Positions 9,849 through 57,540 of a DNA stretch of 64,000 nucleotides are shown here, one piece after another; positions within the stretch are counted from its first letter, which is position 1, and every line of letters begins with the position of its first letter. A model generated the notes under the pieces. It saw only the letters and a list, made by a program, of their open reading frames with translations, was not told the origin of the DNA and searched no databases. Position numbers and translations under genes: made by a program. The DNA comes from Spizellomyces punctatus DAOM BR117 (Eukaryota). The stretch is taken from the NCBI GenBank assembly GCA_000182565.2, contig KQ257455.1; one strand, 5' to 3'.

Positions 9849-10056
9849 GATGGGAAAAGCAAGTGATGAGATTTGGCGGATGAGACCAGTAAATGTCTTG
9901 TCCTTTTGATCACAGTTCAACCTACGTTCGGATCAGAACGGGATTTCTGGGGACGCCGCGTGATCCATAAAATGGGTTGATTTGAAAAGCCGGTTAGATC
10001 CACAAATTCCCACGTGAAAACATGTCGCGTGACCAAATAGCCGAATGAAAGATTTA

Positions 10057-10779
10057 GTGTGTAGGTGATTGAAAATGGCACTAGGACCCAGCATTATCCG
10101 GATTAATCCGGTTAATCATATCACCTAATCAGAACCCCCATCTATCACTCAGATTGGTGTGGCATGTAGCGGTGTGGCATGTATTGTAATGTTTTTTGTT
10201 TATTTTTAAACTGTGGTGAGGCGCATGCTGAAGGTCTATAAAAGGGGACCTGCTCCCTCTTCCGTCTTGTTTCTTTATCCCTCGACTCTCAAAGCATCTG
10301 CCAACGCTCAACTCTCAAGTCCATCATGAGAATCCTGCTCTGGTGCCGACGACCTCGTCCGCCTGACAAATACAACATAACCCCTTGCAAATGCTGCTAC
10401 TACTATATTGCTACGATCGCAGGTATGCATTATCTTTGTATTTTCCCACGCGTATTATCCAGTCTCATTATTCTGATTTTACTAGTATCTGAACATCCTC
10501 TGACTAAAGAATTTCGGAATCAAGGGCTTAGTAGGATTTCTCTCGTGATGTGGGCTTAGTTACCCGGTTAGAACCAACCGTAATGCCTTGCATGTGTAAT
10601 TGGGCCTAGTTGTAGTTGGTTGCACGTACCCCAGTTCAACCCAGGCTGGAACCTGTAGCGAGTTAGGATAGGGGTGGGTTATGAAGGGTTGGACAGGCTG
10701 GCTAATTGTAAATTAGAACCGGCTGTAGTGGGTTGGAGGGAGAATTTGTCTCTAGTGACATTTTCTACCACCTGCACAC
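10057..10779 (+). mobile_element. Non-autonomous TIR element (copy A), TA-flanked; relative of the Fanzor ghost-like element at 43660-44409
   Basis: Left GTGTGTAGGTGATTGAAAATGGCACTAG vs reverse complement of right GTGTGCAGGTGGTAGAAAATGTCACTAG (24/28); TA at 10055-56 and 10780-81; colinear similarity to the reverse complement of 43660-44409. Confidence 0.9.
10237..10243 (+). promoter_or_regulatory. TATA box inside element copy A
   Basis: GGTCTATAAAAGGGG, conserved in copy B, followed by a pyrimidine-rich tract. Confidence 0.55.
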
Positions 10780-10851
10780 TAAGATGTATGGCTTTTGCAA
10801 AAAAGATATCTACAAGGCAAATGGGCTCATGCAAACGTATCTACAAGATGC

Positions 10852-22572: not shown

Positions 22573-23935
22573 ATGTCCGCTGCTCCAGAAAAATACCGCA
22601 AAGAGCTTGCCGAGACTGCCAAAGCTATTGTTGCCCCTGGCAAGGGTATCCTGGCCGCAGATGAATCAACAGGAACTATTGGGAAGCGTTTTCAGAACAT
22701 TCAGGTCGAGAATGTAGAAGAGAACCGGAGAGCGTATCGAGAATTGCTCTTCACCTCTGGCAAAGGTATATCCACGTTGAATGAAGCTGNNNNNNNNNNN
22801 NNNNNNNNNNNNNNNNNNNNNNNNNNNNNNNNNNNNNNNNNNNNNNNNNNNNNNNNNNNNNNNNNNNNNNNNNNNNNNNNNNNNNNNNNNNNNNNNNNNN
22901 NNNNNNNNNNNNNNNNNNNNNNNNNNNNNNNNNNNNNNNNNNNNNNNNNNNNNNNNNNNNNNNNNNNNNNNNNNNNNNNNNNNNNNNNNNNNNNNNNNNN
23001 NNNNNNNNNNNNNNNNNNNNNNNNNNNNNNNNNNNNNNNNNNNNNNNNNNNNNNNNNNNNNNNNNNNNNNNNNNNNNNNNNNNNNNNNNNNNNNNNNNNN
23101 NNNNNNNNNNNNNNNNNNNNNNNNNNNNNNNNNNNNNNNNNNNNNNNNNNNNNNNNNNNNNNNNNNNNNNNNNNNNNNNNNNNNNNNNNNNNNNNNNNNN
23201 NNNNNNNNNNNNNNNNNNNNNNNNNNNNNNNNNNNNNNNNNNNNNNNNNNNNNNNNNNNNNNNNNNNNNNNNNNNNNNNNNNNNNNNNNNNNNNNCAAAC
23301 GGTCTAGTTCCAATTGTAGAGCCCGAGATTCTGATGGACGGTGATCATGATCTGGAGCGGTCGGCTCAGGCCACCACTGAAGTCCTTAGTGCCGTGTTCA
23401 AAGCTTTGCACGACCATCTTATCTTCCTGGAAGGCTCGCTGCTCAAGCCTAATATGGTCCTGCCCGGGTTTGACTCGCCTAAAAAGTACACTCCTCAGGA
23501 TATTGCCAAGGCTACCGTGACTACATTACGCCGTACTGTTCCACCCGCAGTCCCGGGCATTACCTTCCTGTCAGGTGGTCAATCTGAGGAGGAAGCTACT
23601 ATCAACCTCAACGAAATCAACCGTGTTCCGGAAGTCAAGCCGTGGGCGTTAACGTTTTCGTATGGACGAGCGCTGCAAGCATCCGTCCTAAAGACCTGGA
23701 AGGGGAAAAAGGAGAATGTGGAAGCCGCTCAGAAGGTGTTTATTGAACGAGCAAAAGCATGTTCTCTGGCAGCTTTGGGCAAGTACCAAGGAGGTGATAA
23801 AAGCTCGGGTGCTACAGAGAGCTTGTATGTGAAGGTAGGCCACGCTCAAGACTGACAATTTTTCAAGGCACAAAATGTAGAGCTTGAAAGCTAACAATCA
23901 TCCCGTGTCTTCCCTGATAGGATTACAAGTACTGA
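22573..23935 (+). CDS. Class I (Schiff-base) fructose-bisphosphate aldolase; middle lies in an N gap
   Basis: [61 protein letters not shown]-terminal Tyr (DYKY*). Confidence 0.95.
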
Positions 23936-24895: not shown

Positions 24896-25147
24896 GAGGG
24901 ACTCTTGCCAACTGGGGCTGGCATGNNNNNNNNNNNNNNNNNNNNNNNNNNNNNNNNNNNNNNNNNNNNNNNNNNNNNNNNNNNNNNNNNNNNNNNNNNN
25001 NNNNNNNNNNNNNNNNNNNNNNNNNNNNNNNNNNNNNNNNNNNNNNNNNNNNNNNNNNNNNNNNNNNNNNNNNNNNNNNNNNNNNNNNNNNNNNNNNNNN
25101 NNNNNNNNNNNNNNNNNNNNNNTGAAGAGCAGATCTCGCACTTTCCA

Positions 25148-34856: not shown

Positions 34857-35637
34857 TCTGAATGACAATGGTGATTTGTCGACCAGCGCTTGCAGGGCGA
34901 TATCGCCTTACGTGCCTGCTACGCTGTGCCACACCCAAGTTGCTATGGCATCATGGAACTGTGGGATACCGTAAAGGCTTGATAGGCTCGATGGAGCATA
35001 AACAATCGGAAATGTCATCAATGCATCAAGAGTTTTGGATCAATCTGATCAGATGTGAGAAGGAGTGGGTGTTGGTGCAGATGCAGATGCAGGCTTGTAT
35101 CCAGCGGGCACGCATACATGAAAGTAGATGGGATCTGGAGGGTAGCCAAACGGCGGGAAGAAACAAAAGCTTGTCCGTACGCTTACTTGTACGTGCTTAG
35201 TAAGATACATGAAGACATAATAAGATACTATGAAGAATACTCAAGCACTCTTCTTGCTGTGATCCAACGTTGATAACAAAAAGTCTCCAAAATGCAGGAT
35301 AAACAAACAGATCGTTTTGATTACGGCAGCGTGACTCAGCAGCTGGGACTTTCCCGCGCAATTAACCCCTCCTGCCCTCGCTTGCGCCGGTTTCCCCCCA
35401 AGGATGCAGGTTGACGACGACCCATCCCTTCCGCTCGCTGGATTCCCCCGTGCGAGTAACGTGCCTGGCATCGCCCAACTATAAAGTGGCATCTGGGTTT
35501 TTCGTCCGGCCTTGTTGCCAGTCGCACTCGTCCCGTGTTCACCTAGCTGGCTGTCACCTAGGCACTGAAAGGAGGGAGAGGTATGTAGAATACACGTCAA
35601 CGTCAAACGTCAAATTTCGCAAAGTCTGAACACAATT

Positions 35638-42369: not shown

Positions 42370-43440
42370 ATGTCCGTGCCGGGGCTCCAGGCCCTGCACG
42401 CAGGCTATGCATTGCTCCAGGTCAGTGTGAAAGAAGCGCTTATACTCTGCAAAACACTATTTGACTTTCATCCCCCGGATAGTTACTTTGTATATATTTT
42501 GCGGTGCTGGCCTATAGACGATCACGTAATGGTGCCCCGGGTGCCATAGTCTTTGCTGTGTTTGCTGGCCTCAAGTGCTTTGATGATCTCTTGGTAGTCA
42601 TTGGACCTTGGCTTGACGCATCTCCAACCCATCACGCCGTTCTTCGAGGATTGTCGGCCTTTAGCTATTTTGCTGGATGCCTTACGCAACCTTCCCTCTT
42701 CCTTGTTGCCTACGAACTATGCCATACTTTACACGGAGGTCCGAAACGACGCTTGCTAAGCCGCGATCAAGTGGGTCGAATCGGGGCCTTAGCACTTACC
42801 TGCAGTTTTGCCACGTATGAGATCTTGGATTATGCTCTCTATTCCAAAGTGGCCGATTCGATTGTGCTCCGGAAGCCCTGGGGTGTTCCCGTGTACGAGG
42901 TAGAACGTGGAATCTTCAGTGCGAGCGTGTATACCCGGTTCGCGACATGTCTTATGCTGTTAGCGGCTGGTGGGTGCCTTTGGGCGCGGACACATTATCC
43001 ATGGCTGAGTTTATTACAGTTGGTTGTTTTGTTGGGTCAAGGTAAGGAATGCATAATACAACGCGCAATGTATCAACTGTTGTGACTCATGATTTACATC
43101 TCGTCATCTAGTAGCGACCTTTCATGCAGCATCGTACCAAATCTTTCTCGATTCTGGCTGGGATGTTGTATTCTCTCTCTCTTTAGCAATGGCACACTTT
43201 CACGTCATGGGTAATCAAGAGGAAGAGGAAAAGTTTGAGCCGTTGCTGTTTGGCGACGACTCTGCGCGTTGGTATGGAGCCGTGGAGGTTTGGGCAGACG
43301 GACATCCAGCTTCTTCATCACCGACACGGTGGAAAGGAAAGGAAGGAATCGTCATTGTATCGCAACCTGATGGAGGGCAGACGGGCAACCCACCCTATAC
43401 GGCAGTTGAGCGAGGCGACAGCGATCGTACGATAGCCTGA
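42370..43440 (+). CDS. Hypothetical multi-pass membrane protein
   Basis: Three exons with GT-AG introns and several hydrophobic helices; no family recognised. Confidence 0.6.
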
Positions 43441-43642
43441 GGAAAATCATCATAGCTGGGCATATTTATACGGGGTTTATTGTATATTTTATCTGGACAC
43501 ATTATGGGATCTCGTAATTTGAAATACAGACATATAAAACTGTATCTCAAGTCATAACGGATATTGCTATTATTTTATGATGGGCGCATTGGTTGAGGTG
43601 CATTTTGGAAAACGCAAAACGACAGTAGTCGTCTTTCTTATT

Positions 43643-43731
43643 TGGTTTGCCGAACGTTAGTGTAGAGGTGACAGAAAATGGCACTAGCTACTACACCAGG
43701 GAATAAACCGGCGACAACCGGTTCGGAAAAG
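43643..43731 (-). ncRNA. Putative Fanzor omegaRNA: ~74-nt scaffold (43658-43731) plus flank-derived guide (~43643-43657)
   Basis: CTTTTCCGAACCGGTTGTCGCCGGTTTATTCCCTGGTGTAGTAGCTAGTGCCATTTTCTGTCACCTCTACACTA; stems AACCGG/CCGGTT and TGGTGTAG/CTACACTA; resembles the SpuFz1 scaffold as recalled. Confidence 0.75.
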
Positions 43732-44409
43732 CTAACTAAGCTACTACTAAGCAATTATACACGCAATACGTAACGGTTGGTTCTAACCGGATAATTGCCC
43801 ACCACCACACGCGGTCCCTACTAGGCCTTGATCCAGAACTCTTGATGGCATTGAAGCCAGAGTCTTCGCAACATTGGGGAGACTCGCAAGCTGGAGGATG
43901 TTCAGTGACAAGGCTTGGAGACTACAAAAAACTGCATGTCAGCGAGGTGAAATGACAGAATGAAATGATGCCATTGGTACATACCAACCAAGCTCAACTA
44001 ATGTGGCAGCATAATAGTAGGTTTTGTTATCGGATCTGATTGGTTGCCACTGGTTCTGATCACGGTTGCTGTCGGGCGGTCAAGGTCCTCGGCACCACCA
44101 CATCTGTATTCTCATGATTCGACCGACAGTCGTGATGAGAAGAGTTGCACAGATGCTTCGAGAGTCGAGGATGGGTGAAGAGGAAAGAGGGAAGAGACAG
44201 AAGGCCCCCCTTTTATAGACCTTCCGCATGTGCCTCACCGCAGTTTAAAAAAAAAGTTACATTAGCATGCCACACCGCAGTTTGGAGAACATTAGCATCC
44301 ATGCCTCACCGCTTTGAGCGATAGAGGGGGGTTCTGATTATGCGATATGATTAACCGGATTAATCCAGATAATAATGGGTCCTAGTGCCATTTTCAATCA
44401 CCTCCACAC
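43660..44409 (-). mobile_element. Non-autonomous TIR element (copy B), Fanzor 'ghost'-like: 5' CATA, TA flanks, 3' omegaRNA-like end, no Fanzor ORF
   Basis: TIRs GTGTGGAGGTGATTGAAAATGGCACTAG / GTGTAGAGGTGACAGAAAATGGCACTAG (25/28); TA at 43658-59 and 44410-11; CATA on the minus strand at 44410-44413. Confidence 0.88.
44211..44217 (-). promoter_or_regulatory. TATA box inside element copy B
   Basis: GGTCTATAAAAGGGG on the minus strand, same position as in copy A. Confidence 0.55.
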
Positions 44410-44524
44410 TATGATGTGGCTTAGCGGTGCGAATGACCAACGAGAGCGGCTCTCGCGCCCGTTGAGAGATCTGCGAGATCGTGCCTTCATTAGACCAAAC
44501 TTCAAAGGTGAAACCAACCTTCAG

Positions 44525-46679
44525 ATGCTGGAACAAACGCACTTTGACGCCATTGTTCTGGGTACTGGTCTATCAGAGTCCATTATTGCCAGGTAGGCAC
44601 CCGCTAGCACGACCACCCGCGCTGTCTGCGAACACTAGTTGCTGACATGTTCAAAGTTCGCTAGCACGAGCTGGTAAAACAGTTTTGCACCTCGACCGCA
44701 ACATATTCTACGGGGACCATTTTGCATGTTTTGATTTAAAGACCTTTTTGAGGGTTTTGTGTGTAGAGCGAGGTATGACAGTAAGTAGTTTACCGTTTCG
44801 GTGAGATACTGATGTGTGCCTTGTAAAGATGAGACGAACCCTTTTAATGCGGCGTACGGTGATGTGGAGGTCGTGCTGCGAAGTGGGTCAAAAGAGGAGG
44901 TCGAGAGACTTGCGGGTATTCAAAAGAGAGAAAACACTGCAAATGAGGAACCAGCGACGTCTGAGGTAGCTCAGGACTTGCCCACTGACGACGGAGCAGT
45001 GGAAACCAATGGCCCAATACAAACGCCAACACCCAACTCAATCTCTACTATCCTCGATTTTCTCAAGCAAAATGCCAACCTCGTCCCCGTCTTCAAATCC
45101 CTCTTGGCTGATCCCGATCCCTCCGTCACTATCGCATCACTCGACCCATCCGACCCTCTCCTCCCAAAGTACACCATCCTTGCCCACCTTCTAACCCAAT
45201 CCCGGCAATTTAACATTGATCTAGCACCCAAACTCCTATACAACCGGGGGCCTTTGGTGGAATTGTTGATATCGTCGGGGGTGGGCAAGTATTTGGAATT
45301 TAAGGCTTTGGAGAGCGTGTATCTTTCGTGGCAGGGGAAATGTGAGCTGGTATGCTCGTGTGCTCATCTTTGATTGTATGAGAGGCTTATGCTGTGATGT
45401 ATAGGTACCTGGCTCAAAAGAGGACGTGTTTTCGAATCAGAGCGTCAGTTTGGTGGACAAACGGCGGCTAATGAAGTTTCTCACTTTTGCGGTGGAGTAT
45501 GAAGCACAGCCGGAGATTTATCAAGGTGAGTAAGCGTGCCACGAGTACTCGGATTACATTGTACTCATATACATGATCTTTAGACTTTGCAACGCGGCCG
45601 TTCATTGATTTCCTACGTGATCAGAAGCTGAGTCCTCGCTTGATATCGTTCATCCTGCATGCAATTGCATTTGCAGTGGACCGGGCTGACTCAGAGACCA
45701 GTATGTACTCTGCATTGATCACGAGTGAAATTTGAATCTAAAGTTTCAAAAAAAACAGTCACTACGGTCCAAGGACTTGCCCTCACGCAACGTCACTTGC
45801 AATCCCTAGGAAGATGGGGTAAGACAGCATTTTTGGTTGCGCTGTATGGAGCCGGGAGTGAGCTCTCGCAGGCTTTCTGTAGGTCCGTTTTTGTGGCATC
45901 TGTGGGAAGTGCGATACTGGGATCTTACTTTTCTTCAGATTTTGCGCAGTGTATGGAGGGATCTATATCTTGAATTTCCCAATATCAACAATTTCCATAT
46001 CTGAGGATCCCGACCGGCGGTTCAAGGTGGTTGGGAGTGATGGGGGAGAGTACACCTCGTCCTGGCTGGTGACTTCATCAAATTATGTTGGCAACTTACC
46101 GCAGGGGATGAACGTCGACATGAAGAGGTATCCGTGCACTTGGGCTAATACTGTAGTGCAGGAATTAATGTGCCATGTTGTTCTAGTACTCGTGTCTTGC
46201 GTGCCATGGCCATCTTGGATAAACCAATTCATGAGGATACCAATCTGACTGTAACCGTCTTTCCACCTGACTCAAATAGCAACACACAAGGCATCATCGC
46301 AATCCAGCAGAGTTGGGACGTGAGCGCATGTCCAAAAGAATATTGTAAGTCTTGTCTGAATTTTACATAATGCGCTTCATATCTAATGTCCGTGCTAGAC
46401 ATTCTCCATCTCCATTCCCCGAGCCCACAAGCCACCCACCAAGATTTCAAGGCCATTCTCTCATCTCTATCCTTGGACCCCCTAATAACAGTCTTTTATT
46501 CTCAAACAGTCCAAGTTCCCTCTACGATGTGGGTAGCGGATCATCTGGCGTTTGTTGGATCGAATGTGGTGGATGTGGATTTCGAGAGTGCTGTGCTGGA
46601 TGCTAAGGCAGTCTTTGAAAGAATCGTGCCTGACGAGGAAATTTTTGGGGGTGTCGTTGCAGAGGAGGACGGAGAGTAA
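44525..46679 (+). CDS. MRS6: Rab escort protein (Rab geranylgeranyltransferase component A)
   Basis: FDAIVLGTGLSESII, VLHLDRNIFYG, SRQFNIDLAPKLLY, VPGSKEDVF, LYGAGSELSQAFCR, CAVYGGIYILN; long insertion typical of REP rather than GDI. Confidence 0.88.
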
Positions 46680-55690: not shown

Positions 55691-57540
55691 GTGCCCGTCG
55701 GCGGTGCGGAGATTGCACGNNNNNNNNNNNNNNNNNNNNNNNNNNNNNNNNNNNNNNNNNNNNNNNNNNNNNNNNNNNNNNNNNNNNNNNNNNNNNNNNN
55801 NNNNNNNNNNNNNNNNNNNNNNNNNNNNNNNNNNNNNNNNNNNNNNNNNNNNNNNNNNNNNNNNNNNNNNNNNNNNNNNNNNNNNNNNNNNNNNNNNNNN
55901 NNNNNNNNNNNNNNNNNNNNNNNNNNNNNNNNNNNNNNNNNNNNNNNNNNNNNNNNNNNNNNNNNNNNNNNNNNNNNNNNNNNNNNNNNNNNNNNNNNNN
56001 NNNNNNNNNNNNNNNNNNNNNNNNNNNNNNNNNNNNNNNNNNNNNNNNNNNNNNNNNNNNNNNNNNNNNNNNNNNNNNNNNNNNNNNNNNNNNNNNNNNN
56101 NNNNNNNNNNNNNNNNNNNNNNNNNNNNNNNNNNNNNNNNNNNNNNNNNNNNNNNNNNNNNNNNNNNNNNNNNNNNNNNNNNNNNNNNNNNNNNNNNNNN
56201 NNNNNNNNNNNNNNNNNNNNNNNNNNNNNNNNNNNGGCATTCCGAAACACGGTATTGTAGTTTGACTCTGGGGATAGCTTGCGGGGAGAGCGTTCTGCTA
56301 GGCCAGAAACGCTGAATTGCTCTCCAAATCTGAGGGGAACTGGCAATATCGGCACTGCCGTGGCAGGACCACACTGCTACCGCATTGCCGATGTTATCAC
56401 GCCCCCTATGCGGAGACGCGGCACTGATGATTCGAGTCTTATGGACGTTGAACCATCGGAAATTGCGGGTAGGCGCAGGTCCTCCATGTGCCGTTGCTCG
56501 TCGGCGGAAATCGGCCTTTGTCATGCTTGGCCGTGATCAGCCGCCCTCCCTGCTCGCTATCCATCGAGTCCGCCATATATATGACTTAAACCATCGTGAT
56601 CTCCCAATAAAAGCCCGTGCTTGATCAAGGCATCGTGCTGGAGTCAACTCATGGTTCCTACTTGGAACTCTCAGGTATGCTGTTGGCAAATGCCGTAAGA
56701 TATAGGCGTAGCGCTTCGACGTGAAGGGTCTGGAAAGGGAAGTCGCCACCGCGCAAGGGGTGCTGAACGGCTGGCAGTTGAATGTTGACGTCCGAGGACG
56801 ATCTCTTTGCTCGCCATTGAAGGCACGCATAGTAAAAGACATGGCACACGCCTTAGCCGGCCTCTATGCTTAATCTTTGCGAGCTCGTTCTGAACTGAGA
56901 GATCCTGCTCGGACGCGAAAACATCCTTGCCTGTTGGAGCACCTTTGGCTGGCTGGATTTTGGAATCTGATGAATAGCGTTGTCCAAAAAGTGGATCGGT
57001 AGCCCAGTGTGCGATGTAATCTTATGTGCTCTGTCTTTTCGTAAAATGCTATCTGCTGTCAGCAACCCATCGCTGTCTAACTTCCGGGCAATGGCGTTTT
57101 TTTGGCCGCCGTTAATGACATGAGCGGGTCAAGTTCCACTGCCGATATTAAAGGCATGGACGTTCTGACATCTGGCAAGAAGGTGACTTTAAGCCCCTCA
57201 TTTCTTAATCCTGACTGCAGACAGCCGGATAGTAACTCAATACGCAAGCTCTTGTCAGTTTTCATGAGGATTGCATGGAGGTAAACATTGCCTTTAAATA
57301 CATATCCGGGATCCTTTGTGGATTCCTTGTAGTGTTTGTCGTAGGCAATAGTAGGAATTCGGCCATTCCCCTTCTAATCTAGTTTCCGAGCATCGCACGG
57401 CCCTTTTGGGGGGTCTTCCGTCCATTTGCCTGCTCCCTTTGAGCGTTTGACTTGTTGATATCGCTGCGCTTATTCCAGGACGCGCGTGACGGGGAAACGA
57501 CGGTCGCTTTTCGTTTAGGCATCTTTCAAACTTTTTGGAC

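Follow-up and report, generated by a model that had tools for sequence, protein, structure and literature searches.

A probable ghost Spu-1 element of Spizellomyces punctatus with a structured omegaRNA scaffold across its right-end repeat

Fanzor nucleases are the eukaryotic counterparts of TnpB and Cas12. We analyzed a 64,000-nucleotide stretch of contig KQ257455.1 from Spizellomyces punctatus DAOM BR117, referred to below as the window. Positions 43643 to 43731 of the window raise the question of whether an element without a nuclease gene can carry a guide RNA for a Fanzor encoded elsewhere, and whether such an RNA could serve the retention of the element itself. The initial annotation, made from the letters alone, had read this stretch as the omegaRNA end of a non-autonomous element, with stems maintained by compensatory changes and a guide matching the empty insertion site. 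What it had observed, namely the two stems, the difference between the repeats, the guide and the CATA geometry, was confirmed.

Elements of this kind are already described in S. punctatus. In the sections of PMC10432273 (Saito et al. 2023) used here, 134 'ghost Spu-1' loci are reported, with 30-nt inverted repeats, a conserved CA before the 5' repeat and no Fanzor ORF. A 75-nt region across their 3' repeat resembles the SpuFz1 omegaRNA scaffold, around 550 nt of the internal region is conserved, and the guide consists of 14-15 nt from the flank. The TAM is CATA, which Extended Data Fig. 3 (legend) places next to the 5' repeat. The ghost RNA folds into two stems with a 6-nt linker (sections 9-10), and its stem 2 has a 3-nt bulge in place of the 8-nt hairpin loop of the canonical SpuFz1 omegaRNA, whose cryo-EM structure is described in section 10. 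This difference lies in distal stem 2, and the repeats of ghost and canonical Spu-1 elements are stated to differ at 7 of 30 positions. According to the same source, any mutation of the TAM abolishes cleavage (section 8) and no transposase was found for Spu-1 elements (sections 7 and 11).

The window contains an element of this anatomy, consisting of the following parts:

43658..44411, minus strand: whole ghost-type element, 754 bp including the TA at each end, without a nuclease gene
44382..44411, minus strand: 5' (left-end) inverted repeat, 30 nt, TAGTGTGGAGGTGATTGAAAATGGCACTAG, its core identical in the second copy in the window
43658..43687, minus strand: 3' (right-end) inverted repeat, 30 nt, doubling as the 3' part of scaffold stem 2
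44412..44413, minus strand: CA directly outside the 5' repeat, forming CATA with the opening TA of the repeat

The two 30-nt inverted repeats (43658-43687 and 44382-44411) are complementary at 27 of 30 positions. The TA at both element ends may be part of the repeat rather than a target-site duplication. Between the repeats lie 694 nt, compared with the around 550 nt conserved internally in the ghost elements of PMC10432273; in kind, we found no difference from the class as its cited sections describe it. No ORF of at least 70 aa lies wholly within 43658-44411 except a 71-aa stop-to-stop frame on the plus strand (43740-43955), and the spliced minus-strand RNA of this copy has no frame longer than 49 codons. 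No TnpB, Fanzor or transposase was found among ten of the 14 window frames of at least 250 aa in a Pfam scan that left out the four long frames overlapping runs of N. These runs are located at 22790-23295 (506 bases), 24926-25122 (197 bases) and 55720-56235 (516 bases).

We placed contigs of four public runs on positions 43100-45000 at a likeness of at least 80%, which gave 285 contigs for run X1, 380 for X3, 20 for X16 and 13 for X10. X1 was taken as DNA because the introns of the neighboring gene are kept in it, and X3 was taken to contain cDNA, although it is labelled 'DNA?', because its contigs skip the GT..AG introns of that gene. The summed X1 depth, which is not a copy number, rose from 2.7-2.9 on the flanks to 81-573 on the element, and the X3 contigs concentrate on the element as well. 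Since the X1 depth piles up on the element relative to the flanks, we concluded that the element belongs to a large family. Paralogous contigs extend over most of the sequence that separates the repeats, and many of them diverge past 43739 within the element. Because so many contigs break at 43739/43740, just upstream of the scaffold, the family comprises subfamilies that share the scaffold but differ beside it. Nine paralogous contigs of run X3 lose their match at this point and then carry another common sequence. Relative to its paralogues in the contigs of the public runs, the window copy carries private changes, for example at 43750, 44037 and 44082. The CA outside the 5' repeat is kept in the family: the match runs through 44413 in three of the four listed paralogous contigs that cross the 5' end, and stops at 44411 in the fourth.

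Read on the minus strand, positions 43731..43658 give CTTTTCCGAACCGGTTGTCGCCGGTTTATTCCCTGGTGTAGTAGCTAGTGCCATTTTCTGTCACCTCTACACTA, followed by ACGTTCGGCAAACCA. The features of this end are:

43658..43731, minus strand: omegaRNA scaffold, 74 nt (75 nt with the G at 43732), consisting of 5' UCC, stem-loop 1, a 6-nt linker AUUCCC and stem 2 with a 3-nt bulge
43705..43724, minus strand: stem-loop 1, core AACCGG / CCGGTT, from the pair list of the fold
43658..43698, minus strand: stem 2, base TGGTGTAG ... CTACACTA, with a distal hairpin within the repeat, from the minimum-free-energy (MFE) fold
43643..43657, minus strand: predicted guide, 15 nt, ACGTTCGGCAAACCA, equal to the flank outside the element, its length following section 7 of PMC10432273 as far as that section is used here

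Both stems named by the initial annotation occur in the MFE fold. In stem 1, AACCGG (43723..43718) pairs with CCGGTT (43711..43706). The base of stem 2 is formed by TGGTGTAG (43698..43691) and the terminal CTACACTA (43665..43658), joined by eight pairs, one of them G-U, and a bulge of three nucleotides, CUA, lies on the 5' side of this stem. The MFE of the 74-nt scaffold was -21.3 kcal/mol, against -12.4 +/- 2.5 kcal/mol for dinucleotide shuffles (z -3.54), and 2 of 1000 shuffles folded equally well; a repeat run gave z -3.73, with 1 of 500. The mirrored 5' end of the element, used as a control, did not stand out (z +0.35, 312/500), and values for the 5' end in sense (z -1.11, 63/500), the 3' end of the second copy (z -1.58, 35/500) and the antisense strand of the scaffold (z -2.42, 10/500) all lay above that of the scaffold. 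The mirrored 5' end of the second copy folded well too (z -2.38, 10/500), due to a local palindrome. Over a longer context of 143 nt the fold was ordinary (z -1.61, 14 of 200 shuffles equal), and Rfam gave no match in the 64-kb window.

Because the canonical scaffold letters stand in no main text (those of PMC10432273, PMC11423790 and PMC13434818), we used the residue names given in section 10 of PMC10432273, rather than the canonical sequence, for comparison. A 15-nt string of the scaffold was likewise not found in the literature text searched. With the alignment anchored on U5 C6 C7 and shifted by 1 nt after position 21, 15 of the 18 canonical residues named there match the scaffold, the exceptions being G22, C40 and G70. 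U5 C6 C7, U16-G20, A29-C34, U35, G37, A72 and A75 all have counterparts here, and the end architecture and the scaffold plan are those of canonical Spu-1. Unlike the canonical element, the one in the window has no nuclease gene, its scaffold has 1 nt fewer in the stretch between positions 21 and 28, G22 is unmatched, and the pair C40:G70 is replaced by U:A. With ghost Spu-1 it shares the 30-nt repeats, the CA, the lack of a Fanzor ORF, the two-stem scaffold of 74-75 nt across the 3' repeat, the 6-nt linker and the 3-nt bulge of stem 2, as well as the 15-nt flank guide, the CATA geometry and the presence of many copies. The element is therefore very probably of ghost Spu-1 type, a kind already known from S. 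punctatus. To call it a non-autonomous element that keeps a Fanzor1 omegaRNA scaffold, as the initial annotation did, was right; the finding is real but not new, the ghost class having already been described and tested.

The tests in print concern ghost scaffolds as a class. In section 9 of PMC10432273, four ghost scaffolds supported editing with SpuFz1 in human cells at levels comparable to the best canonical designs. In section 8 of PMC13434818, which collates 126 unique ghost scaffolds of 74-76 nt (2026), 12 were tested in human cells and supported SpuFz1 editing. Loading and cleavage with a scaffold of this sort, on which the initial annotation had made its reading depend, are thus borne out for the class in these sections. 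We consider the scaffold in the window likely to be usable by Fanzor1.

We then compared the scaffold with its relatives for changes that preserve structure. The two repeats of the element differ at three positions, one of which is the fifth base after TA, where the 3' repeat has A and the 5' repeat has G. The proposal that this difference preserves the stem agreed with the folding: the 5'-repeat letter at this place costs 4.2 kcal/mol and breaks the stem. Reverting all three differences raised the MFE from -21.3 to -14.9 kcal/mol, and each single reversion was destabilizing (-17.1, -19.1 and -20.2 kcal/mol). Among random triple changes, 95 of 3000 equalled the fold stability of the real sequence (p about 0.03).

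A two-base-pair covariation with the SpuFz1 scaffold had also been suggested. One of the two pair changes agrees with the residue names given in section 10 of PMC10432273: the canonical C40:G70, which bounds distal stem 2, is U:A here and is paired (43693:43663). A further candidate came from the paralogous contigs. The variants listed at a share of at least 5% include just two substitutions in the 74-nt scaffold, 43710 G>A and 43719 C>T. These two sites are partners of one pair in stem-loop 1, and together the substitutions turn G-C into A-U on the RNA strand. One contig of run X16 carries both changes, and in runs X1 and X3 the distances to the contig ends fit one contig carrying both. The 43710 change alone, which leaves a G-U pair, is commoner than the double change in X1 and X3. 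Among the variants listed, the chance that two variable sites pair is about 0.009 (23 pairs in 2701 site pairs). The base of stem 2 shows no variation among the paralogue variants listed, which is uninformative for or against its pairing.

The window holds one further copy of the element:

10055..10781, plus strand: second, diverged copy, 727 bp, from a BLAST search of the element against the window

This copy shares the 5' 380 bp with the element and has kept both repeats, the TATA box and an intron-like stretch of 63 nt, while its 3' half has diverged. Its 5' flank reads TT instead of CA, and a long imperfect hairpin replaces the two-stem scaffold. The copy is probably decayed or of another subfamily. 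At aligned positions it keeps 13 of the 23 scaffold pairs, without the linker. We dropped it as a partner for covariation analysis because it keeps only these 13 of 23 pairs and folds differently. A 27-nt similarity at 35018-35043 looked like chance. Outside the window, a metagenome scan with a degenerate repeat pattern gave no match, and the single metagenome match to the 19-nt repeat core (L001, 1510-1528) fell in an unrelated contig and was set down to chance.

Selection on RNA structure, as the initial annotation had proposed, was thus upheld in part. The replacement of C40:G70 by U:A, the G-C to A-U change in stem 1 and the repeat asymmetries speak for it; against it stand the invariance of stem 2 among the listed variants and the 13 of 23 pairs in the second copy. 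On these sequence comparisons, the support for structure-preserving change is modest.

Two further features lie within the element:

44210..44217, minus strand: TATAAAAG box (TATA box), present in the second copy too
43922..43984, minus strand: intron, 63 nt, GTATGT..CTGAC..TAG, defined by contigs joining 43921 to 43985, in RNA running towards the scaffold

The TATAAAAG box lies about 190 nt from the 5' end in both window copies, and both contain a stretch of 63 nt that shows GTATGY, a branch site of the form CTGAY, and TAG at its end. Contigs joining 43921 to 43985 were observed in X3 (three contigs), X16 (one) and X10 (one), and none in the DNA-like run X1; only the X16 joint has at least 30 letters on its shorter side. 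Because intron-skipping contigs occur in X3, X16 and X10 and are absent from X1, the family apparently gives rise to a transcript that is spliced on the scaffold strand. In X3 the contig depth is high between the scaffold and about 44190 and low over the remainder, as far as the 5' repeat, a profile that resembles a start just downstream of the TATA box; we set this aside as start-site evidence, since contig depth cannot rank the parts of a gene. A scan for bacterial-type promoters and terminators was irrelevant in a eukaryote.

When the family-majority letters are used, a frame of 89 codons opens in the spliced RNA, from 44115 to 43783 on the minus strand; in the window copy the private letter at 44082 stops this frame after 11 codons. 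We rejected the frame as a gene: its 20 listed variants fall 6/9/5 by codon position, 15 of them are non-synonymous, including two stops, and frameshifting indels occur. Neither the TATA box nor the 63-nt intron nor the compensatory pair in stem 1 is mentioned in the sections of PMC10432273 and PMC13434818 used here. As additions to what is known, we regard this pair, the fold-favoring repeat asymmetries and the promoter with its intron as leads.

We next examined the guide and the insertion site. The predicted guide ACGTTCGGCAAACCA has a sole perfect match in the window, its own flank, where ACTA precedes it (the occupied allele); the next-best match in the window has three mismatches and no CATA. 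Because the 5' flank ends in CA (44413..44412), removal of the element together with one TA gives CATA + ACGTTCGGCAAACCA. The reconstructed vacant site is thus CA + TA + ACGTTCGGCAAACCA, and the occupied junction has ACTA. The expected match between guide and empty site therefore holds, but by construction: whichever RNA runs out across the end of an element, its guide equals the flank. Of this match, the CA ahead of the 5' repeat alone is informative. It is from this CA and from the ACTA at the occupied junction that the TnpB-homing geometry follows.

In runs X1, X3, X16 and X10, no contig skips 43658-44411, and no excision product was seen in the contigs of the four runs; contigs drop rare forms, so this does not imply absence of the empty allele. 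RNA contigs of the family cover the scaffold. No listed contig runs across 43658 from the repeat into the guide flank, and contigs cannot show RNA ends.

The geometry resembles that of IS200/IS605 TnpB, for which a homing mechanism is stated in the part of PMC10690162 cited here. As with the TnpB-omegaRNA of these elements, the guide RNA would read out of the right end into the flank, and the TAM lies just outside the left end. Because the TAM is left-outside and the guide right-outside, a vacant site consists of TAM plus target and the occupied site is immune. Unlike IS200/IS605, the host is eukaryotic and the ends carry inverted repeats and TA, not TnpA-type hairpins. No transposase is known, the nuclease would act in trans, and seamless excision is a feature only of the homing proposal here.

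Based on these features, we propose that a TATA-box promoter of the element itself may drive minus-strand transcription of a spliced, non-coding RNA, and that the 3' end of this RNA (the scaffold plus about 15 nt of flank) would be taken up in trans by the Fanzor1 of full-length elements elsewhere in the genome. The complex would be able to cut any element-free copy of the site, because such a copy reads CATA, the TAM, and then the guide match; the occupied site would be spared, because ACTA stands there and not CATA. A break at an empty allele, or at a precisely excised site, could then be repaired from the occupied copy, and the element would be kept or restored, as for IS605 TnpB. Cut-and-paste excision of TA elements usually leaves a footprint, which here would part the TAM from the target.

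Taken loosely, as the identity of the element together with trans use of its RNA, this whole chain makes the stretch the right end of a ghost Spu-1 element usable in trans by Fanzor1, a reading that we favor with some reserve. Homing or retention as the natural role of the element, argued from the analogy with TnpB, is more tentative and, in our judgment, less likely than not. A wider version would have ghost Spu-1 elements as self-contained RNA polymerase II cassettes, with a TATA box, a short non-coding exon, a conserved 63-nt intron and a 3' omegaRNA whose stems are kept by compensatory change. On this view they would be selfish elements lacking a nuclease, which produce a guide of their own and rely in trans on a borrowed Fanzor1 for homing into CATA sites. 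We consider this version doubtful.

The same features could also belong to an inert miniature transposon that was recently amplified and whose end is kept for the transposition machinery, the stems being a by-product of subterminal repeats and the RNA having no role for this copy. Here the scaffold overlaps the inverted repeat, which is needed for mobility; most of it is invariant among the paralogous contigs, as in a young family; and the second copy keeps its repeats yet loses 10 of the 23 pairs. The private changes elsewhere in the window copy (43750, 44037, 44082) and the lack of a locus-specific guide transcript among the contigs fit inertness as well. Against inertness, the stems are specific to the 3' end (z +0.35 for the mirrored 5' end), with all three repeat asymmetries favoring the RNA fold. 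The G-C to A-U change in stem 1 and the C:G to U:A change relative to the canonical scaffold point the same way, as does a family transcript spliced on the scaffold strand. Ghost scaffolds, moreover, work with SpuFz1 in the sections already cited (PMC10432273 section 9; PMC13434818 section 8). On this evidence, we judge inertness rather unlikely. Chance complementarity in an ordinary intergenic repeat is hardly credible: the 143-nt context is only slightly better than its shuffles (z -1.61, 14/200) and no Rfam family matches, but the 74-nt scaffold folds more stably than 998 of 1000 and 499 of 500 shuffles, 15 of 18 canonical residues printed in the cited section match it, and it is conserved in hundreds of contigs.

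A role other than the element's own retention was also considered, in which ghost RNAs are trans-acting guides or decoys that send Fanzor1 to, or titrate it for, other transposons or the host. Section 11 of PMC10432273, in the part cited here, proposes that ghost guides let Fanzor1 reach diverse sites and aid other transposons in trans, and because the elements have their own promoter and intron, their RNA would be made independently of the nuclease gene. This guide, however, is the flank, and within the window it matches perfectly at its own site only, with three mismatches and no CATA at the next-best place; the conserved CA, too, creates a TAM nowhere but at the empty site of the element itself. 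Such a role is improbable.

Ghost elements are the clearest hint that a guide RNA can spread without its nuclease. The locus adds no new kind of element; it provides a clean worked example, with the TAM beyond the left end, the guide beyond the right end and immunity of the occupied site. If true, the leads from the stem-loop 1 pair, the repeat asymmetries and the promoter with its intron would bear on how the guide is made in the fungus.

The rest of the window is ordinary eukaryotic gene space that carries ankyrin, ubiquitin, F-box, mitochondrial carrier and Ras genes. The 5' end of the element adjoins a gene of the GDI family (Rab GDI / escort protein type; 44411-44592, plus strand) at its start codon, and the introns of this gene at about 44593-44656 and 44773-44828 are borne out by a spliced contig. 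Because the insertion adjoins the start codon, this gene is cut off from its former upstream sequence. The last A of the element, together with the following TG, forms an extra in-frame ATG just ahead of the ATG at 44414.
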